From Halomicrobium mukohataei DSM 12286 (GTDB lineage: Archaea; Halobacteriota; Halobacteria; Halobacteriales; Haloarculaceae): a DNA stretch of 32,000 nt. Below the pieces are notes generated by a model. The model did not search any database. It worked only from the letters and a program-made list of their open reading frames with translations, and was not told the DNA's origin. The translations under genes and the position numbers were made by a program. Location: positions 720,001 through 752,000 of the forward strand of contig NC_013202.1 of NCBI RefSeq assembly GCF_000023965.1. The letters run 5' to 3'. This document shows, one piece after another, positions 3,271 through 19,500 of the stretch (positions within the stretch are counted from its first letter, which is position 1; each line of letters starts with the position of its first letter).

Positions 3271-3408
3271 CGGCGACCGCCGGGCGGAGTTAAACGACCA
3301 GGGGCGTTTTTAAACGTTCTCGCGCAGTCTGAGAGAGTTTCGAACGTCGCCGAACTGACTGAACCGGATTCGGGGTTTATGCCGGTGTTAGCACACGTCT
3401 CTGGTACG

Positions 3409-4224
3409 ATGCGCACCGAACTATTCGCACTGGCGATGGCCGTCACGCTGGTCGGGGCCGCAGTCGGCCCCGGCGTCGTGGCGGCCGACGACGAGGCCGG
3501 GAACGCGGCGCTGTCGGTCAGTGTCGCACAGGACGAGGACGTGACGATCAGCGTCACGGCAAACGACAGCGCCGTCGAGAACGCCACCGTCGACGTGGGT
3601 GGCGAAGAGGGGAGTTCCTACGAGGGAATCGGGTCGTACACGACCGACGACGACGGGGAGGTAGAGCTGGACTCGCCCGAGGCCAACGTGACGATCTCGG
3701 TCACCGCGACCGCCGACAACCGGACGGCCACGACGACGGCCGACCTGCTCGGCGAGGAGTACCTCGTCGAGAATCAGACGAGCGCCTTCGGCCAGCAGGT
3801 GTCTGCCTACGTCCAGTCGCTGCTGGACGGTGATCGACGCCACATCGGTCCGCAGGTCGCCGCCTTCGTCCAGGCGAACAACCCCGGCAACGCACCCGCC
3901 CACGCGGGTCCGCCCGAACACGCCGGTCCCGACCACGAGAACGAGACCGGAGACGACAACGAGACGGCATTCGAGAACGAGACCGACGAGGACGAGCGCG
4001 GCCCGCCCGAACACGCCGGTCCCGACCGCGAGAACGAGACTGACGAAGACGAGCGCGGCCCGCCAGAGCACGCCGGTCCCGACGCGGAGGAAGACGCGAC
4101 CGACGACGAAGCGTCCGAGACCGACGACGAAGCAGAAACTGAGGAGTCGGAAGACGAAGAAGACGGAGCGGAGAGTGACGACGACGGCGGTCCGCCGGAC
4201 CACGCCAACGCGGGCGGCAACTGA
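3409..4224 (+). CDS. secreted, highly acidic repeat protein with many N-glycosylation sequons
   Basis: Signal-peptide-like N-terminus MRTELFALAMAVTLVGAAVGPGVVAADDE. Multiple NxS/T sequons (NDS, NAT, NVT, NRT, NQT, NET). The motif GPPEHAGPD occurs three times. An alternative ATG lies at 3379; TTTAT at 3376-3380 sits about 30 nt upstream of 3409. Confidence 0.65.
   Translation: MRTELFALAMAVTLVGAAVGPGVVAADDEAGNAALSVSVAQDEDVTISVTANDSAVENATVDVGGEEGSSYEGIGSYTTDDDGEVELDSPEANVTISVTATADNRTATTTADLLGEEYLVENQTSAFGQQVSAYVQSLLDGDRRHIGPQVAAFVQANNPGNAPAHAGPPEHAGPDHENETGDDNETAFENETDEDERGPPEHAGPDRENETDEDERGPPEHAGPDAEEDATDDEASETDDEAETEESEDEEDGAESDDDGGPPDHANAGGN
3973..4086 (+). repeat. two tandem 57-nt in-frame repeats (ENETDEDERGPPEHAGPD x2) inside CDS 3409..4224
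   Basis: Units at 3973-4029 and 4030-4086 are near-identical at nucleotide level. A more degenerate third GPPEHAGPD motif lies just upstream. Confidence 0.8.
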
Positions 4225-11207: not shown

Positions 11208-14200
11208 CTACATGAAGTCCGCAATCCCGCTCTGCTTGTTTTTGTCGTTCTCGAACACCCGCTTGATCGACTTGTCGAGGATTTCGAGGCGCTGTTTGGT
11301 GTACTCTCGGCAGTCGAACTCCTCGGCGACCATCGTCGCCGTGTCGATGTACTTGTTGACCGACCCTTCGTGGACCGTGAGGTTGACCCGGCCGCCACAC
11401 TCCCGGCAGTCGCCGGTCAGGGGCATCCGGCGGTACTTCTCGCCGCAGTCGAGACAGCGGACTTCCTGGCGGGAGAAGGCCCGGAGGTTGCCGATCAGGT
11501 CCGGCAGGAAGTGGTACTCGATGATCCGTTCGGCCACGTCGGTCTCGTCGACAGCCCGCAGCGTCCGCGAGAGATCGAGCTGGGCGTCCATCTTGTCGGT
11601 CATCGAACCGAGCGTCTTGTAGGCCGAGAGGTCCGGGCCGAGCGCGATGTCGGTGGTGTCGTGGGTGTGATCGAAGCCGGTGTACTCGTGGTCGGTGCCC
11701 AGCGTCTCCTCGGCGATGGTCATGACGTCCTCGACATCCTCGGGGTCGGCCATCTCGCGGGTGGCCTCGTAGAACTCCCGGGGGTACTCCCGCATGATGT
11801 CCATGTTGTGGGCCTCGTCGTCGATCTCGCTGGGGTCGATGCGGGAGGACATCACCAAGGGTGCGTCCATCCGACCGCCCCGCTGGTTCGGCAGGAACGT
11901 CTTCGAGAAGTTCAGGAGGCCGTCCATCAGCAGCATCACGCAGTCCTCGTCGCCGTCGCACTGGCCGGAGTAGGTGCCCTCGATGGCGACCCGGTGGGTG
12001 TCGGCGACGGTGAGACAGTAGACGTGGTTCGTGTCGCTGTCGACGTACTCGACCGACACCACTTCGTCGAACGGAACGCCGTCGTCGGCACCCGCCGAGG
12101 GCTGTGGGGCATCGCTCGCCGTCATCACGGTCGTCTCGCCGCCGTCGTAGGCCGGGAGTTCGTCGCCGGCCGAGAGTTCGCTGGCCGGTGCTTCTTCGAG
12201 CCCGTCACCGCTCCGCCGGAGCATCGTGTGGTCGGGAGTTACCCGCAGCGAGCGGTCACCGACCTCGATGCGGACCATGTGATCGGGAGCGTGATGTTTC
12301 GAGACCGCCTCGACGGGCTTGCGACACGGGCGACCGTCGGCGTCGACCGAGGGCACCGTGACCTCGCCGTCCAGTTCCTCGACCAGGGTCCCGAAGTCGT
12401 CCTCGCGCGGGTCGTCGAGTCGCTCCTCGACGAGATCGGCGATAGGGCCGTACTGCCAGTCGCCAGCCTCGTCCTCGTACCAGAGTCGCGATTCGGGGTG
12501 GAAGCAGTTGCGGCGCTTGGCGGCGTGGAAGTACGGATGCGCGTACCCGACCGCCGCGGAGGTGAAGCCGACGACGCGCCCGACCGTCGCGGCGCTGGTG
12601 TGGGGTGCCATCCCGAAGACGAGTTCGCCGACGAGGTCCTCGCGGTCGTCGAGTTCGTAGAACCGGTCGAGCCCGTAGTACTGCTCTAAGAGGTCGTCGA
12701 CGAACGCGGCGGTCTGGAGCATGTGCTCGGCCGCGCCGTCGGAGAGCACCACGTCCTGGACTCTGAGCTCGACGAGCTGGTCCTCGTGGCGCAGCGGGTC
12801 GCCGTGGATGTCCGCCTCGTAGCCCAGCCCGCGGAGCTGGTCGACGCTCACGTCGAGTTCCGACGCCCGGACCGCGGTGACCGGCAGGTCCGTCATGTCG
12901 TAGCGGACGGTGCCGTCTTTGAACGCCGACACGTCGTGTTTCGCCCGGAGGATCCCCTTCTCCATCGGTTCGGGAATCTTCTCCTTGGAGGTCAGCCCCT
13001 CGACGCCTTTGACGATGTCGAAGGCCGTCTCGCGTTCGCCGACGGCACCCAGCGCGTCGCGGAACTCCTCGCCGAGGTCGATGGCCTCGTACTGGGTGGG
13101 GTAGGCCATCGTCTCGCAGTGGGCACACTCGGCGCGGCCCGACTCGTCGGGCTCGACCTCCGAGTCGCAGTCGGGACAGACGTAGACGGCGTCGGTGACG
13201 CCGTTGCAGTCCGGACAGCGGCCCCGAAAGGTCTCGGTGCCACAGTCCCGACAGCGGCGGCGACCGACCTCGACCTCGACGAGGCCCTGCTGGTCGTTCA
13301 TCTTCTCGGCGTGTTTGGTGGCGTCGGCGACCGAGCGCTGAGCGCCGCCGGCCTCGTCGATGGGAAACAGCGTGTGGACGGCCGGCGACAGCTCTCGCTC
13401 CTCTGATTTCTCGGGGCGACCCATCCGGTTGCCGATCCGGGTCGGGGCGCGCTCGCGGAGCCGGAAGGGAGCGATCTCGTTGATCGCCTCGATGGCGTTG
13501 TCGCCGTCCGCGTACGTTCGAGCGTGCTCCGAGAGGTCCCCGAGCGACCACTCGCGTTCGAGAGCGGCGTCGAAGCCCAGCGTCCGGACCAGCGGCTCCC
13601 AGTCGGGGACGACGATGGTGTCCTCGCGCTGAGTGTGCTCGACGAGCAGGTGTTCGAGCGTCTGGGCGACGGGCTCGCGGTTCGGGAGGACGAGGTCGCC
13701 GTCGGTGCCCCGGTCGGGCGACGGCGTCGGCGCGACCGCGCCGTCCGTCTCGGCCCTCTCGGCGTCTTCGACGGCGGCCGCCAGCGCGCCGACGGCGTCG
13801 ACGGTCACGTCGTGCCAGCAGTAGGTGTACTTGGGGTGCAGGGGGGCGTCGTAGTCGGTCGCCCACCGCAGCGCCTCCTCGGCAGTCGGATCTGCCAGGT
13901 CGACGTGAACGTCGTCTTGCAGGGCCTGCACGTCGCCACCGGCGTCGTCGAACTCCTGTCGCCACCACTCGACGGTGTAGGAGGCCGGCACGAGCGGGTG
14001 GTTGTTCTCGACGAACTCGCCGTAGTTGACGAGGTACTCGCCCAGATCCAGCACCTTCTCGACGCCGTTGCGGACCTCGATTGCCTCGGCCGGGTCGTCG
14101 ACCCGGCGCACGTCCCCGTTGGCGAGCTTGACCGTCGGCCCCTCGATGGTGTCGACCGGGACCACGCCAGCGGCCTTGCCGGGCCGTTCGGTCTTGATCT

Positions 14201-15329
14201 GGGTGCCGGTCGCGAGGAAGTCGTCGACCAGGTGCATCGTCGCGGGGTGGACGCCGGCAGTCGCGTTGCCGTGGTTGCGCGCCCGGCCGTACCGCAGGCG
14301 AAAGCCACCGGGTTCGCTCGGATGTGAGAAGACCGGTCGGCCGGCGATGAGGTCACGGAGGAACTTCGTACTGGGATCGGCACGCGGCGGGCCGTCGTCC
14401 TCGCTCGTAGAGGTCTCGTCGCCCTCGTCCTCGTCTCCGTCGTCTCCCTCGTCGGCCGCGTCCTCCTCGCCGTCCTCGTCGCCGTCTTTGCCGATCGTTC
14501 CGTCGATGAGGTCTTGCAGCCACGGCCAGTCGACCTCCTCTAAGTTGCGGGTGTAGCGCTGGATCTTCGGAGCCTTCAGCGCGATGCCCTCGGCGGCGAC
14601 GAGACACATCCCACCGCGGGCGGAGTTGGTGTCGACCCGTTCGAGGTCCCGAAAGCCCGAGACCTCCTCGTCGCCGGTCGCCTCGCCGTCCAGCATGATC
14701 GGCATGTGCTCGGCGATGAACTTCGACTCCTTCTCCTTGGGCGAGTACTGGAGGCCCGTCTCCTTGTCGTACAGTTCGATCTCCTCGGCGTAGCGGTTGA
14801 TCTCCTCGTCGCGGGCCTCGTACTCCTCGATGCCCAGCAGCGCGCGAGCGTAGTCGGCCACGAGAACCGAGAGCGCCTGTGCGGTCCCGCCGGCCGAGCG
14901 GATCGGGCCGGCGTAGTAGACGTTGACGAACTCGGTGCCGTCGTCGTTTTCGAGGATCTCGACGCGGTCGATCCCCTCGATCGGTGCGGCGACGACCCCC
15001 TCGGTCAACAGGGCGACGGCCGTTCGAACGGCACCCTCGACCTTGCCGGCCTTGGAGTCGTAGTCCCCGACCTCGCCCTCCACGAAGTCGGAGACCAGCT
15101 CCAGTGCGGCCTCCTCCCTGCTCATCTCGCCTTCGAGTTCGCGGACGCGTTCGGCGACGCCGTCGATCCCGAGGATGTTCTCGACGCGGTCGGCCATGTC
15201 TCTGGCCGTCGGGATCTCGACCTCGGGGACGGGATCGCCGCCGCGTCGCTTGGCCGCCTGGGCCACCTCGAAGGCGTCGTCGAGCTGGGATTCCAGGCGG
15301 TCGAAGTAGCGTTCGTCGACCTCGCGCAT
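11208..15329 (-). CDS. polC: DNA polymerase II (PolD) large subunit DP2, intein-containing precursor
   Basis: 1373 aa: MREVDERYFDRLESQLD..., YYAGPIRSAGGTAQA. Cys-cluster zinc fingers are present (CRDCGTETFRGRCPDC, CPDCDSE...CAHC, CLDCGEKY...CRECGG). The catalytic motif HPYFHAAKRRN/CDGDEDCVMLLMDGLLNFS is interrupted by 182 aa. An acidic insert (GDEDGEEDAADEGDDGDEDEGDE) fits a halophile. Confidence 0.95.
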   Translation of the reverse strand: MREVDERYFDRLESQLDDAFEVAQAAKRRGGDPVPEVEIPTARDMADRVENILGIDGVAERVRELEGEMSREEAALELVSDFVEGEVGDYDSKAGKVEGAVRTAVALLTEGVVAAPIEGIDRVEILENDDGTEFVNVYYAGPIRSAGGTAQALSVLVADYARALLGIEEYEARDEEINRYAEEIELYDKETGLQYSPKEKESKFIAEHMPIMLDGEATGDEEVSGFRDLERVDTNSARGGMCLVAAEGIALKAPKIQRYTRNLEEVDWPWLQDLIDGTIGKDGDEDGEEDAADEGDDGDEDEGDETSTSEDDGPPRADPSTKFLRDLIAGRPVFSHPSEPGGFRLRYGRARNHGNATAGVHPATMHLVDDFLATGTQIKTERPGKAAGVVPVDTIEGPTVKLANGDVRRVDDPAEAIEVRNGVEKVLDLGEYLVNYGEFVENNHPLVPASYTVEWWRQEFDDAGGDVQALQDDVHVDLADPTAEEALRWATDYDAPLHPKYTYCWHDVTVDAVGALAAAVEDAERAETDGAVAPTPSPDRGTDGDLVLPNREPVAQTLEHLLVEHTQREDTIVVPDWEPLVRTLGFDAALEREWSLGDLSEHARTYADGDNAIEAINEIAPFRLRERAPTRIGNRMGRPEKSEERELSPAVHTLFPIDEAGGAQRSVADATKHAEKMNDQQGLVEVEVGRRRCRDCGTETFRGRCPDCNGVTDAVYVCPDCDSEVEPDESGRAECAHCETMAYPTQYEAIDLGEEFRDALGAVGERETAFDIVKGVEGLTSKEKIPEPMEKGILRAKHDVSAFKDGTVRYDMTDLPVTAVRASELDVSVDQLRGLGYEADIHGDPLRHEDQLVELRVQDVVLSDGAAEHMLQTAAFVDDLLEQYYGLDRFYELDDREDLVGELVFGMAPHTSAATVGRVVGFTSAAVGYAHPYFHAAKRRNCFHPESRLWYEDEAGDWQYGPIADLVEERLDDPREDDFGTLVEELDGEVTVPSVDADGRPCRKPVEAVSKHHAPDHMVRIEVGDRSLRVTPDHTMLRRSGDGLEEAPASELSAGDELPAYDGGETTVMTASDAPQPSAGADDGVPFDEVVSVEYVDSDTNHVYCLTVADTHRVAIEGTYSGQCDGDEDCVMLLMDGLLNFSKTFLPNQRGGRMDAPLVMSSRIDPSEIDDEAHNMDIMREYPREFYEATREMADPEDVEDVMTIAEETLGTDHEYTGFDHTHDTTDIALGPDLSAYKTLGSMTDKMDAQLDLSRTLRAVDETDVAERIIEYHFLPDLIGNLRAFSRQEVRCLDCGEKYRRMPLTGDCRECGGRVNLTVHEGSVNKYIDTATMVAEEFDCREYTKQRLEILDKSIKRVFENDKNKQSGIADFM
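11961..12506 (-). mobile_element. 182-aa mini-intein in PolD DP2 (no homing-endonuclease domain)
   Basis: It starts with Cys (tgc, + strand gca at 12504-12506) straight after ...AAKRRN. It ends ...AIEGTYSGQ (cag at 11961-11963) before +1 Cys (11958-11960). Removing it restores AAKRRN-CDGDED. A block-B-like TPDH is present. 182 aa is too short to hold an endonuclease domain. Confidence 0.85.
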
Positions 15330-16361: not shown

Positions 16362-16366
16362 ATATA
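16362..16366 (+). promoter_or_regulatory. TATA-box candidate for the 16393 gene
   Basis: CATATACC is centred about 29 nt upstream of ATG 16393, in the 100-bp divergent intergenic region. Confidence 0.35.
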
Positions 16367-16392: not shown

Positions 16393-17745
16393 ATGTCGAC
16401 AGCTCGCCGGAGGCGCGCCACCGTGCTGGCTCTCGTCGTCGCTCTGCTTGCCGTCCCGATCGCGGGCGGACAGCTCGGCGGGCTGGCACAGGAACAGGTC
16501 GATCCAGACACCGTCGTGCTACAGGTCGAGTTGCAGGCCGACGGCGACGCGTCGTGGGCCGTCCACTACCGGACGCGGCTGGACGACGACAACACGACGG
16601 CCGCCTTCGAGAGCCTGCGAGACGACGTGAGCGACGACCCGACCGCGTACACGGCCGACTTCGGCGACCGCATGAACCGGACGATCGCGACCGCCGAGAA
16701 CGCGACCGGCCGAGAGATGGCGCTTCGGAACCTCACGGTAGCGACCGAGACCGAGGCGCTGCCCCAGGAGTACGGCGTGGTCACCTACCGGTTCGAGTGG
16801 ACGAACTTCGCGGCCGTCGAGGGCGACCAGCTCCGGGCGGGCGACGCGCTGTCGGGCCTGTATCTCGACGAGGAGAGCACGCTGCGGATCGACTGGCCCG
16901 CCGGCTACGAGCGCACGAGCGTCGATCCGTCGCCGACCCGCAGCGACGAGCAGACGGTCGCCTGGGACGGCCGCATCGACTTCGAGAGCGACGAGCCACG
17001 GCTCGTCGTGACCGAATCCGCCGCGGCCGGCGAGACGACGACCGGTGCTGGCGAGGCCGCAGGCGACGCCTGGCTGCTCGTGGCCGCGACGGTGCTCGCG
17101 GCCGGCGGCGTCGTCGCGCTGCTGTGGGCCAACCGCCGGTACGGTATCGCCGGTGGAGCAGCGAGCGACAGCGGGCGGGACGACGGATCGGAGGAGCCGG
17201 CCGAAAGCGGCGGCGAGAGCGCTGGTGAAGCGTCCGACGAGGACGCGGGCGGTGACCCGTCGCCGCCGCCGGAACTGCTGAGCAACGAGGAGCGCGTGCT
17301 CCAGTTGCTCGACGACAGCGGTGGCCGGCTGAAACAACAGGCCATCGCCGAGCGACTCGACTGGACCGCCGCAAAGACCAGTCAGGTGATCGGCGACCTG
17401 CGCGAGGAAGACGAACTGGAGACGTTCCGAATCGGCCGGGAAAACGTCGTCACGCTCCCCGGCGTCGACCTCGCGAGTGACGTGGGCGAGGGCGAGGGCG
17501 AGGGTGAGGGCGAGGGCGAGGGCGAGGGCGAGGGCGAGGGCGAGGGCGAGGGCGAGGGCGAGGGCGAGGGCGAGGGCGAGGGCGAGGGCGAGGGCGAGGG
17601 CGAGGGCGAGGGCGAGGGCGAGGGCGAGGGCGAGGGCGAGGGCGAGGGCGAGGGCGAGGGCGAGGGCGAGGGCGAGGGCGAGGGCGAGGGCGAGGGCGAG
17701 GGCGAGGGCGAGGGCGAGGGCGAGGGCGAGGGCGACGAGCCGTAG
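16393..17745 (+). CDS. membrane-tethered winged-helix transcription regulator with an extracytoplasmic domain and a (Gly-Glu)41 tail (450 aa)
   Basis: An N-terminal RRRR plus hydrophobic segment ([18 protein letters not shown]) precedes an ectodomain of about 230 aa. A second TM ([21 protein letters not shown]) is followed by NRRY and an acidic linker. The wHTH reads [61 protein letters not shown]. The protein ends in (GE)41-GDEP. Confidence 0.8.
17485..17730 (+). repeat. (GGCGAG)41 hexanucleotide microsatellite, in frame, encoding (Gly-Glu)41
   Basis: 41 consecutive 6-nt units counted from the sequence. The only deviation is GGTGAG in unit 4 (T at 17505, synonymous). GGC GAC GAG CCG TAG follows. 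Confidence 0.97.
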
Positions 17746-17877
17746 AACTCCCATATAAACCCATCGACGTTTCGAGCGGGAGAGACGGACGATCAAGCGA
17801 TAGGCCGTCGCAGTCGTGCGGTTTCGATCGCGGTTAATTCGGCTTGATCGTCGGCAATTCGGGATTACGGCCGCCCC

Positions 17878-17884
17878 TTTATAT
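17878..17884 (+). promoter_or_regulatory. TATA-box candidate for the 17914-19500 gene pair
   Basis: TTTATAT is centred 33 nt upstream of ATG 17914. Confidence 0.4.
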
Positions 17885-17913
17885 GCGGTTGCCGACACAA
17901 GGACGGCGTACAG

Positions 17914-18792
17914 ATGCGAGACACCACCACCGTACTGGTCGCAGTCGCACTGGTCGTCGGGAGCCTCGCGGCCGTCCCGATGGCCGGAGTGGCCGCCCAG
18001 ACGACGGAGACAGCGACCGACACGAACAGTCCGACGGCGACCGCGACCGACACCAACGCGACCGCCGCCAACGCGACCGCACCCGGCGAGCAGCTCGCTG
18101 GCGTCGTGAGCGTACAGGGTGCCGAGATCGACGGCGAAGTGGAGACGCGTGCGTACGGCATCCGCGTCGCTCAGTCAGAGAGCAACGACTCGAAGGCCGC
18201 CGTCGTCGGCCAGCAGATGGCCGATATCGAACAGCGACTCGACGACCTCGAACAGCGCCGAGAGACGCTGACGGCGGCGCGTGAGAACGGCTCGATGAGC
18301 GAAGGGCAGTACCGCGCCCGGATGGCGCGACTGGCCGCCGAGACCCGCACGGCCGAGCGGCTCGCGAACCAGAGCAACGAGACGGCACAGACACTCCCCG
18401 CAGAGACCCTCGAAGCCAACGGCGTCAATGCGACGGCGATCCGGACGCTGAGCGATCGGGCCAACGAGCTACGGGGGCCGGAAGTGGCCGCGATCGCCCG
18501 CTCGATCGGCGGCGCGGGGACCGGTAACGGCTTCGGTCCGGCGGCGGCCGGTGAGCGCGGTGCCGAGGCTGGCAACAGAACCGCTGGACAGGACCGCGGT
18601 AGCGACGCCCGAGACGGCGGCAACGAAACGGACGCATCGAACGAACGGCCCACCGCAGACGGTGACGGGGCGACCGGGAGCCAGCCCGAAGACGACGACC
18701 AGCAGTCGACTGACACCGAGACCGACGACAGCGCGTCCGAGGCCGAGGATCAGCGGGGCGGTGGCAACGCGAGCGAGGGGCAGGGTCGATAG
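17914..18792 (+). CDS. secreted protein with a Thr/Asn-rich N-terminal region, a coiled-coil-like core and an acidic tail (292 aa)
   Basis: Signal peptide MRDTTTVLVAVALVVGSLAAVPMAGVAAQ. Next come TETATDTNSPTATATDTNATAANATAP and a helical Arg/Glu/Ala/Leu-rich region (IEQRLDDLEQRRETLTAARENGSMSEGQYRARMARLAAETRTAERLANQ). The C-terminus is Asp/Glu/Gly-rich. Its TAG is immediately followed by the next gene's ATG. Confidence 0.7.
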   Translation: MRDTTTVLVAVALVVGSLAAVPMAGVAAQTTETATDTNSPTATATDTNATAANATAPGEQLAGVVSVQGAEIDGEVETRAYGIRVAQSESNDSKAAVVGQQMADIEQRLDDLEQRRETLTAARENGSMSEGQYRARMARLAAETRTAERLANQSNETAQTLPAETLEANGVNATAIRTLSDRANELRGPEVAAIARSIGGAGTGNGFGPAAAGERGAEAGNRTAGQDRGSDARDGGNETDASNERPTADGDGATGSQPEDDDQQSTDTETDDSASEAEDQRGGGNASEGQGR

Positions 18793-19500
18793 ATGAGAGC
18801 GAGAGCGGCCCTCGCGACGTTGAGCGTGATCGCGCTGGTCCTTGTAGGGAGCGCCGGACCCGCGGCAGCGTCCCACCAGCCGAGCTTCGTCGTCGACCTG
18901 GACGCGAGCGGCGACGCGACGGTGACGATTACGTACACGTACGACCTCGGAGACGACGCCGAACAGGCGGCTTTCGCGGAGCTACGGCGCAACGAGACGG
19001 CGACCGCCGCGTTCGAAGAACGGGTTCACGATCGGTTCGAAGCGGTGGCGAACGCCAGCGAAAACCGGACCGGACGCCGGATGGCGATCGAATCGGCGGC
19101 GGTCGAACTCACCCGAGAGGACGGGACCGGGGTCGTCGAGGTCTCGGTCCAGTGGAGCGGGCTGGCAGCGACGACCGAGAACGGACTGGTCCTCGACGAG
19201 CCGTTCGCCAGTGGTTTCGAGCCCGACCGTGCGTTCGTCGTCGTCCTCCCCGACGGCTACGAGGCGACGACGAGCACGCCCTCGCCCGCAGAGAGCGACG
19301 ACGGGCGACTGGAGTGGGCCGACGGGACGACGCTCGACGACTTCGAGGTCGTCGCGACGGAGACTCCCGCCGACGCCGGTGGGACCGCTGACAGCGACGC
19401 GACGACGGGGGCTGACGGCCCCGGCGTCGGCGTCGTGGGGACGGTCGCGGCACTGGTGGCCGCTGGCGCGCTCGCCGTGCGACGACGCCCGAGAGCGTGA
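18793..19500 (+). CDS. surface protein with a PGF-CTERM-like anchor (PGV variant), paralogous to the ectodomain of the 16393 regulator (235 aa)
   Basis: Signal peptide MRARAALATLSVIALVLVGSAGPAAAS. The C-terminus GPGVGVVGTVAALVAAGALAVRRRPRA has the PGF-CTERM architecture (Pro-Gly-hydrophobic, TM, basic tail). The body aligns with 16393-gene residues ([28 protein letters not shown]; [20 protein letters not shown]; [28 protein letters not shown]). Confidence 0.75.
   Translation: MRARAALATLSVIALVLVGSAGPAAASHQPSFVVDLDASGDATVTITYTYDLGDDAEQAAFAELRRNETATAAFEERVHDRFEAVANASENRTGRRMAIESAAVELTREDGTGVVEVSVQWSGLAATTENGLVLDEPFASGFEPDRAFVVVLPDGYEATTSTPSPAESDDGRLEWADGTTLDDFEVVATETPADAGGTADSDATTGADGPGVGVVGTVAALVAAGALAVRRRPRA

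Follow-up and report, generated by a model that had tools for sequence, protein, structure and literature searches.

Introduction

In Haemophilus, Neisseria and Campylobacter, phase variation operates through simple-sequence contingency loci, whose copy number changes by slippage. As far as the literature we searched shows, we know of no such contingency locus described in archaea. The Ser-Asp (SD) region of the ClfA/Sdr proteins is a polymorphic coding dipeptide repeat made of degenerate 18-nt units, and the (GGGGCC)n expansion of C9orf72 forms G-quadruplexes (G4s), undergoes repeat-associated non-AUG (RAN) translation and is pathogenic at hundreds of units. ToxR and CadC are membrane-tethered one-component regulators with an OmpR-like winged helix and a single membrane span. 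Here we analyse a locus that touches on all of these systems: a coding microsatellite, (GGCGAG)41, that extends with Gly-Glu (GE) dipeptides the tail of a putative membrane-tethered winged helix-turn-helix (wHTH) protein. It lies in a 32,000-nucleotide stretch of Halomicrobium mukohataei DSM 12286 (NC_013202.1, positions 720,001 to 752,000), called the window below.

The repeat has been listed before. A 2021 article in Frontiers in Microbiology gives (GGGCGA)n as a potential G4 repeat of Halomicrobium mukohataei (PMC8044849). Its Table S1 records 10 non-overlapping GGGCGAGGGCGAGGGCGAGGG copies within a DSM 12286 'hypothetical protein', and its text names strain ZPS1, calls the repeat idiosyncratic to the organism and excludes it from analysis (PMC8044849). 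New beyond that article are the frame in which the array is read, its poly-GE product, the host protein with DUF7345 and DUF7343, the ancestral seed of the array and the lengths of 41, 39 and 15 units. The G4 motif and the membrane anchoring of the host protein also go beyond a first-pass annotation of the window, which had pointed to the array from the letters alone. We conclude that the array is a real, very young and in-frame hexanucleotide microsatellite, probably unstable and near-neutral in a permissive protein tail.

Results

A near-perfect hexanucleotide array in frame with its gene

A regular-expression count on the window found one single run of 41 hexamers, 40 of them GGCGAG and one GGTGAG (Table 1). 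The order is GTG, then (GGCGAG)3 GGTGAG (GGCGAG)37, then GGC GAC GAG CCG TAG. The array is in phase 0 relative to the ATG at 16393 and is thus in frame with its coding sequence (CDS). Tandem Repeats Finder (TRF) called 17484-17735 with period 6, 42.0 copies, 99% matches, 0 indels and a score of 497, while the remaining tandem repeats of the window score at most 196. The count agrees with the first-pass annotation on the length of the array, its odd fourth unit and its frame. With 245 of 246 bases matching (99.6%), no indels and a unit of 6 nt, the array is a short tandem repeat (STR). No second hexamer array of at least 3 units was found in the window.

Codon usage in the window gives GGC as 0.60 of Gly codons and GAG as 0.76 of Glu codons, so that a GE pair is written GGCGAG with p=0.46. 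The probability that at least 40 of 41 GE units are GGCGAG under this usage is 6.6e-13, which puts the purity of the array beyond codon bias. Neither codon bias nor protein-level selection accounts for it, and recent amplification can. The earlier argument that selection on the protein would not keep 40 of 41 units codon-identical is thereby given a number.

Probable origin from a single Gly-Glu codon pair

Orthologue tails were measured as the segment after the conserved GRENV[VL] motif in 119 orthologues. They are 7-46 residues long (median 16), irregular, rich in D/G/E/T and of net charge -1 to -15, and none contains a dipeptide repeat of at least 3 units. By the same measure, the H. mukohataei tail has 97 residues, 45 of them acidic, and a charge of -45. 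The acidic charge of the tail is conserved across orthologues; its length and sequence are not. Seven sibling sequences, ~91% identical (from Halomicrobium sp. IBSBa, LC1Hm, KBTZ05, a strain labelled H. mukohataei and metagenomic copies), share the ending VGEDDES, and none has the repeat. Since no orthologue has it, including these 91%-identical siblings, the expansion is recent and lineage-specific.

The sibling DNA (L031 5067-5089) reads GTG GGT GAG GAC GAC GAG TCG TAG, with one GGT GAG only. The ending GAC GAG xCG TAG is common to the sibling lineage and the array-bearing gene; it is kept behind the array, so the reading frame runs through it. The single sibling GGT GAG corresponds to the odd unit 4, which marks a lone Gly-Glu codon pair as the starting point of the array, with GGTGAG probably the ancestral seed. 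By this alignment, the ancestral tail was V-G-E-D-D-E-S (GTG GGT GAG GAC GAC GAG TCG), and its Gly-Glu hexamer was amplified to 39-41 copies in the DSM 12286/ZPS1 lineage.

Searches with a wider scope agree with this restricted distribution. No array of at least 4 units was found in the orthologous loci of other species (L001-L024, L031, L032), and the further array matches were the array itself, in same-species loci only (L025-L030). A scan of genome contigs with the protein deprived of its tail retrieved other species only, at identities of at most 53%, and no conspecific genome. Among the best 150 of 1.84e9 representatives (phmmer), none joined the wHTH to a long GE tract, in a search whose compositional filters may hide pure poly-GE. 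Matches to the tail only, among the same 1.84e9 representatives, were EGEGEVLP-type repeats with pure GE of at most 5. The nearest of them (P0133, P0150, P0160, P0164) are giant proteins of 1100-2000 amino acids (aa) with dozens of EGEGEVLP-like octapeptide repeats, an unrelated Gly-Glu-rich class.

Unit number differs between assemblies

Unit counts were read from assemblies, not from reads. Conspecific loci were reached through a neighbour gene, with the flank cut back first to 1525 nt and later to 650 nt to keep alleles from being merged. CP045142.1, named H. mukohataei ZPS1 in PMC8044849, carries 39 units with GGTGAG again at unit 4. Its flanks show 0 mismatches in 9,583 + 11,062 bases (20,645 in total), and unit number is the sole difference between DSM 12286 and ZPS1 across ~20.9 kb. 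The draft RZNE01000005.1 carries 15 units, a count that may be a collapse, with 0 mismatches in flanks of 1,252 + 2,587 bases. The pure tract downstream of GGTGAG has 37, 35 and 11 units in the three assemblies, and all length change lies there. Frame and stop are identical in the 41-, 39- and 15-unit alleles. The prediction that tail length could vary without breaking the frame thus holds for 41, 39 and possibly 15 units, between flanks that are base-for-base identical. A second contig of >1 Mb has an apparent 446-aa product and was not counted as an allele.

The figure of 41 units in DSM 12286 is backed by the literature, since the start and end distances given for its gene in Table S1 of PMC8044849 sum to 1353 nt, the length of the gene in the window. 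The genome was finished with 13.4x Sanger reads (PMC3035239), which can span 246 bp. Short-read contigs behave differently. Of the five Logan contigs at the locus, four (SRR9434931, SRR017870-72) have their first bases within the array and contain 3-4 complete units of it (24-30 nt of repeat), which is what k=31 would lead one to expect; the fifth (SRR5381736) starts ~20 nt downstream of the array.

The same hexamer was also found elsewhere. A scan of JGI metagenomes for (GGCGAG)6 returned at least 120 loci with 6-19 perfect units, a range capped by short-read assembly. They lie in unrelated GC-rich genes, and many are in-frame as GE. No homologue of the wHTH gene was found among these loci by blastn or tblastn. 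One gene, with identical flanking protein sequence on two marine metagenome contigs, carries (GGCGAG)14 on one (L072 2204-2287) and (GGCGAG)15 on the other (L120 4456-4545), which is independent evidence that GGCGAG length varies in nature. GGCGAG is thus a recurrent coding microsatellite, and the H. mukohataei copy is exceptional in length and purity.

A tandem G-quadruplex motif

Read one base earlier, the array is (GGGCGA)n, with 41 GGG runs separated by 3-nt loops (CGA, and one TGA). This strand is the coding (non-template) strand and the mRNA, where it makes a tandem G4 motif. The array contains at least 4 G-runs of at least 3, with loops of 1-7 nt, which is the canonical G4 pattern; there are 39 overlapping motif starts, all within the array, and no canonical motif elsewhere in the window on either strand. 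G4Hunter scores 1.50 across 17478-17738 (261 nt), while the other 42 candidate regions span 25-44 nt. With G4 terms, the ViennaRNA energy model predicts 10 tandem quadruplexes at -133 kcal/mol, versus -59 kcal/mol without them. Slippage through Watson-Crick hairpins was considered and rejected: the two strands fold at -3.6 and -1.2 kcal/mol, worse than shuffles. No Rfam RNA family matched anywhere in the window.

In Haloferax volcanii, G4s were visualised in vivo, and 98.5% of the candidates score 1.2-1.4 in G4Hunter (PMC12873603). An increase of KCl from 0.1 to 1 M raises the G4 melting temperature by ~20 °C (PMC12678505).

The host protein is predicted to tether a wHTH domain to the membrane

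The 450-aa product ends in (GE)41GDEP, followed by the stop. Its start codon is supported by the orthologues, which likewise begin MSTARRRR, and by an ATATA element ~29 nt upstream (16362-16366), which suggests a leaderless transcript. Pfam detects DUF7345 (residues 44-172; E=5.7e-35, 120.8 bits, gathering cutoff 27.5) and DUF7343 (residues 295-356; E=2.8e-27, 94.8 bits, gathering cutoff 27.6). With both domains above their gathering scores and in the order DUF7345, transmembrane (TM) helix, DUF7343, the protein belongs to this family. No literature was found on DUF7343, DUF7345, DUF4897 or DUF7096.

An AlphaFold2 (AF2) model of the protein was built on 50 homologues. In it, the DUF7345 ectodomain is a high-confidence, sheet-rich, mixed alpha/beta fold, which Foldseek finds weakly similar to FMO protein and LppM (TM-scores 0.18-0.40). 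The N-terminal helix matched no TAT (twin-arginine translocation) or signal model in NCBIfam. By the positive-inside rule, the NRRY motif after the TM helix would place the C-terminal part of the protein in the cytoplasm. The model gives the wHTH as helix-strand-helix-helix-strand-strand. The GE tract begins at residue 365, 8 residues past the wHTH, slightly closer than the ~10 residues of the first-pass annotation, and has a predicted local distance difference test (pLDDT) score of 40-55. The 97-residue tail is thus an acidic disordered segment beside a DNA-binding fold, as in the known proteins with Asp/Glu (D/E) repeats discussed below. The acidic linker on the other side of the wHTH (aa 250-294) is ~8 residues longer than in the 91%-identical sibling lineage and has a different sequence, so that both disordered acidic segments flanking the wHTH are indel-prone.

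Foldseek superposes the wHTH on SrnR, CzrA, HlyU, HsmR and PcaV (root mean square deviation 1-3 Å, 57-66 columns, prob 1.0), with E values of 0.025-0.05 that are modest because the domain is short. No ArsR/MarR family model matched in Pfam or NCBIfam. Bordered by disordered segments, the domain is a 62-residue wHTH and no more, without the dimerisation helices and ligand or metal sites of those families, and its likeness to ArsR/SmtB and MarR regulators, as modelled, is one of fold only. A sequence search of the wHTH against the PDB gave insignificant matches only (Z-alpha E=0.13, NtcA E>1); those to Z-alpha (ZBP1/DLM-1, E=0.13-0.15) probably reflect generic winged-helix similarity. On the predicted structure, the host is best read as a membrane-tethered wHTH protein with a sensor-like domain outside.

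At E<=1e-5, 1210 homologues were found among 8000 candidates scored. Among those listed, the precomputed Pfam domains are DUF7345 and DUF7343, and all with a source name are haloarchaeal. A 24%-identical homologue over the DUF7345 and wHTH parts occurs in a Candidatus Hodarchaeaceae metagenome-assembled genome (MAG; Asgard; JASEJC010000001.1, L023 6001-6861), from which the DUF7345-wHTH architecture may extend beyond Halobacteria.

The repeat also creates open reading frames (ORFs) in another frame and on the other strand, namely (AR)n, (PR)n and (AL)n, all present as first described. As genuine genes they are ruled out: the Pfam domains and the 1210 homologues are confined to the plus frame, so the ORFs are artefacts.

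Neighbouring genes and other features of the window

The proteins neighbouring the array-bearing gene match ACV46898/ACV46899, and QCD and QFR entries of Halomicrobium mukohataei, at full identity. The adjacency of a DUF7096-like gene (gene B in Table 1) to the wHTH gene is conserved, being seen in Halomicrobium, Salinibaculum, Halorubrum and several MAGs. In Halomicrobium, the DUF7096-like gene is followed by a DUF7345 paralogue with a PGF-CTERM anchor (gene C), for which the matches are Pfam DUF7345 at E=6.8e-23 and TIGR04126 PGF_CTERM at 28.8 bits (cutoff 24.5).

Table 1. Coordinates (window numbering) of the array, its host gene, adjacent genes and repeat-derived ORFs
Feature	Position	Strand	Basis
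CDS, 450 aa: DUF7345 - TM - acidic linker - DUF7343 wHTH - (GE)41 tail	16393..17745	+	ORF list, translation, Pfam
Arg-rich hydrophobic N-terminal helix, aa 2-19; signal peptide or membrane anchor	16393..16449	+	AF2 helix, sequence
Extracytoplasmic DUF7345 domain, AF2 aa 41-208, Pfam 44-172	16513..17016	+	pLDDT 95-98, Pfam
TM helix, aa 226-249, then NRRY	17068..17139	+	AF2 helix, sequence
Disordered acidic cytoplasmic linker, aa 250-294	17140..17274	+	pLDDT 37-48
DUF7343 wHTH, aa 295-356	17275..17460	+	Pfam; AF2 pLDDT 85-96
Coding microsatellite (GGCGAG)3 GGTGAG (GGCGAG)37 = (Gly-Glu)41	17485..17730	+	reading, regular expression, TRF
Interruption GGTGAG = unit 4	17503..17508	+	present in all three assemblies
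GGC GAC GAG CCG TAG = G-D-E-P-stop	17731..17745	+	homologous to sibling-lineage GAC GAC GAG TCG TAG
Gene B, secreted acidic protein, weakly DUF7096-like	17914..18792	+	Pfam E=4.7e-4, below cutoff
Gene C, DUF7345 paralogue with PGF-CTERM (ArtA) cell-surface anchor	18793..19500	+	Pfam, TIGR04126
Spurious ORF containing (AL)n	16519..17898	-	repeat artefact
Spurious ORF (PR)n	17450..17764	-	repeat artefact
Spurious ORF (AR)n	17477..17758	+	repeat artefact

Directly downstream of the three-gene DUF7345/DUF7096 cluster, from 19851 to ~29700 (+), lies a complete LysW-type arginine biosynthesis cluster (argG, argH, lysW, lysX, argC, argB, argD, argE, argF). The argG-argH part of the arrangement is kept in Halomicrobium, and the adjacency of argG is also found in Salinibaculum. 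On the other side, at 11208-15329 (-), the window encodes the DNA polymerase II large subunit (PolC/DP2), a 1373-aa protein with a weak intein-splicing match. Its Halomicrobium salinisoli orthologue (L032) has 1197 aa and no such match, so only one of the two species seems to have the PolC/DP2 intein. A secreted, very acidic protein is encoded at 3379-4224 (+). It contains a 57-nt tandem repeat (3972-4083; 2.0 copies, 92% matches) that encodes ENETDEDERGPPEHAGPDR twice and is likewise low-complexity and acidic, but degenerate and short.

Discussion

The comparison of orthologues and assemblies is best explained, in our opinion, by the inflation of a short, acidic, disordered C-terminal tail from ~8 to ~90 residues. 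Growth and shrinkage would both occur by replication slippage in the long pure tract (37, 35 or 11 units) past GGTGAG. As neither strand forms Watson-Crick hairpins, a G4 of (GGGCGA)n on the non-template strand is the likeliest stabiliser of slipped intermediates, and the molar K+ of the haloarchaeal cytoplasm would favour it. The expansion may be tolerated because the 6-nt unit is frame-safe, because the disordered tail was acidic to begin with, as it is in all orthologues, and because a Gly/Glu-rich, highly charged sequence is soluble and typical of haloarchaeal proteomes. In consequence, the array would be near-neutral or would modulate the tethered wHTH modestly at most, by electrostatic or steric means, and would not be a dedicated functional module. 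In this scheme G4 folding, the part of G4s in slippage and translation of the tail are predicted steps.

Several observations weigh against this conclusion. Archaea are generally depleted of STRs (PMC12699852), so that an array this long and pure could hint at selection for length, and the family keeps an acidic tail, so that charge beside the wHTH may matter. On the side of the data, the counts of 39 and 41 come from assemblies and could reflect consensus or assembly error, the 74-nt periodic tract of the 15-unit allele is what de Bruijn collapse at k 69-74 gives, and ZPS1 could be the type strain in subculture rather than an independent isolate. The last points lead to the most probable of the alternatives, in which the real array is stable at one length and the differences are technical, by a polishing error in ZPS1 and k-mer collapse in the draft. 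Flanks that are 100% identical over 20.6 kb fit two sequencings of one strain, the tract is beyond the resolution of short-read assemblers (four of the five Logan contigs begin within it), and the 15-unit allele is consistent with collapse at k ~69-74. We nevertheless consider it unlikely. A clean, in-phase 12-nt difference that keeps the interruption at unit 4 is an outcome of slippage and atypical of consensus error; the second contig of >1 Mb appears, indirectly, to carry the same 446-aa (39-unit) product; and GGCGAG arrays of like kind differ by one unit between metagenomes. Moreover, pure tracts of at least 35 units are, as far as is known, unstable in every system studied. That the tract itself might be an assembly artefact, or lie outside the translated gene, has next to no credibility. 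Low-complexity sequence is error-prone and the exact 450-aa product is absent from protein collections, but three independent assemblies and several independent read sets hold the tract with an identical interruption, and the tract is in frame with the homologous C-terminal D-E-x-stop kept behind it. Neither the 450-aa product nor ten synthetic variants, with 36-44 units or with an alternative start giving 491 aa, were found in the protein collection. The 39-unit product encoded in CP045142.1, used as control, is missing as well, so the absence reflects the database and not the gene, and the look-up is uninformative. More broadly, GE-tailed proteins, including the 446-aa product called in CP045142.1 (L025 2492-3832), are absent from the large clustered collection and have no precomputed Pfam matches; resources of this kind seem to lose genes that contain long low-complexity tracts.

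Two other explanations give the array a function. In one, raised as speculation by the first-pass annotation, the polyanionic (GE)n tail bends back onto the wHTH and acts there as DNA mimic or autoinhibitor, or else serves to bind cations, and slippage tunes the regulator heritably and reversibly, as an archaeal, frame-preserving contingency locus. The tail is flexible and starts 8 residues after the wHTH, a net-negative tail is present in every orthologue, acidic disorder lies on both sides of the wHTH, and length alleles of the tract exist. Placed beside DNA-binding domains, D/E repeats cause autoinhibition and can accelerate target search, with effects that depend on their length (PMC10250230). 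However, no other family member has a long tail and the 91%-identical siblings manage with 8 residues, near-perfect codon identity speaks of mutation pressure and not of protein-level selection, and acidic residues make up only half of the tail. By general physical chemistry, molar KCl should also heavily screen an electrostatic fold-back, so that the intracellular salt would weaken the DNA-mimic idea. We regard an adaptive tail as doubtful, and a DNA-mimic role as hypothetical. In the other explanation, the tandem G4 array acts in DNA or mRNA and poly-GE is incidental: it could act as a 3'-end brake on transcription or translation, as an insulator or terminator ahead of the DUF7096/DUF7345-PGF-CTERM operon, or as a recruitment site for a G4-binding factor. 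Within the 32 kb, the array has the sole canonical G4 motif and no G4Hunter region comes near it in length. It lies 184 nt (17731-17913) upstream of the start codon of the next gene, and belongs to a group of organisms, the haloarchaea, in which G4s exist in vivo (PMC12873603). Against such a role, which we hold to be highly improbable, the array is missing from all relatives with the same gene order, gene B has its own TATA-like element ahead of it (17878-17885), Rfam has no match at the array, and the authors who first listed the repeat judged it idiosyncratic to the organism (PMC8044849).

We thus retain a young microsatellite that probably changes in length by slippage, and its interest is that of an outlier. 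Archaea are the domain with the lowest STR density (PMC12699852), and a 246-bp, 99.6%-pure and apparently length-polymorphic coding microsatellite stands apart among them. It combines a canonical tandem G4 motif, a molar intracellular K+ that stabilises G4s and a harmless in-frame readout, the length of the tail. The array could therefore be used as a natural reporter of repeat instability and G4 processing in archaea, whose replication and repair proteins are close to the eukaryotic ones; mutants of the G4 helicases Rad3 and Dna2 are available for Haloferax (PMC12873603). It is also a snapshot of a low-complexity protein tail born from a single Gly-Glu codon pair. As the tract breaks short-read assemblies and its carriers are missing from large protein collections, such genes are systematically under-represented. 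No new mechanism or function is revealed at present, and the value of the locus lies mainly in offering a natural model, in an archaeon, of repeat instability linked to G4s. It is tempting to go further and propose the first archaeal frame-preserving 'tuning' microsatellite, in which G4-promoted slippage, in a K+-rich cytoplasm, keeps changing the length of the tail and this grades DNA binding by the membrane-tethered wHTH through electrostatic or steric autoinhibition. We consider this a long shot; if true, it would produce heritable, reversible heterogeneity in the expression of the adjacent cell-surface genes (DUF7096, DUF7345-PGF-CTERM).

Comparison with known systems

The array resembles bacterial contingency loci (Haemophilus, Neisseria, Campylobacter) in being a long, pure intragenic simple-sequence repeat, subject to slippage, in an envelope- or surface-linked gene. 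Those loci use units that are not a multiple of three, or promoter spacers, and switch on and off. Here the 6-nt unit keeps frame and stop in all alleles, and the hexamer can at most grade the length of the tail.

The SD repeats of staphylococcal ClfA/Sdr proteins are a parallel at the protein level, as an in-frame acidic dipeptide repeat that is disordered, extended, variable in copy number between strains and safe for the frame. They differ in their degenerate 18-nt units and in forming an extracellular, glycosylated stalk that spans the wall and is found family-wide, whereas the GE array has near-perfect 6-nt units, would be cytoplasmic and is confined to one lineage. C9orf72 (GGGGCC)n shares with the array a G-rich, expansion-prone hexamer, DNA and RNA G4s (predicted here) and translation into dipeptide repeats; the other frames of the GGCGAG array would give Ala-Arg and Arg-Gly. 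In contrast, the C9orf72 expansion is eukaryotic and intronic, is translated from non-AUG codons and becomes pathogenic at hundreds of units, while the GE array is the tail of an ordinary ORF in an archaeon, with 39-41 units.

Two further systems compare with the host protein. In the HMGB1 tail and in Antp homeodomain fusions (PMC10250230), as here, a polyanionic disordered segment is tethered within a few residues of a DNA-binding domain. These D/E-repeat tails, whose autoinhibition was shown to depend on length (PMC10250230), consist of contiguous D/E, are conserved in length and work at ~0.15 M salt. The GE tail alternates Gly and Glu, is not conserved and is placed in molar KCl. Finally, the host protein alone resembles the membrane-tethered one-component regulators ToxR and CadC, with one membrane span, an extracytoplasmic domain and a cytoplasmic winged helix. 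Its order is inverted, with the ectodomain N-terminal and the wHTH C-terminal, and its wHTH is ArsR/MarR-like and not OmpR-like.

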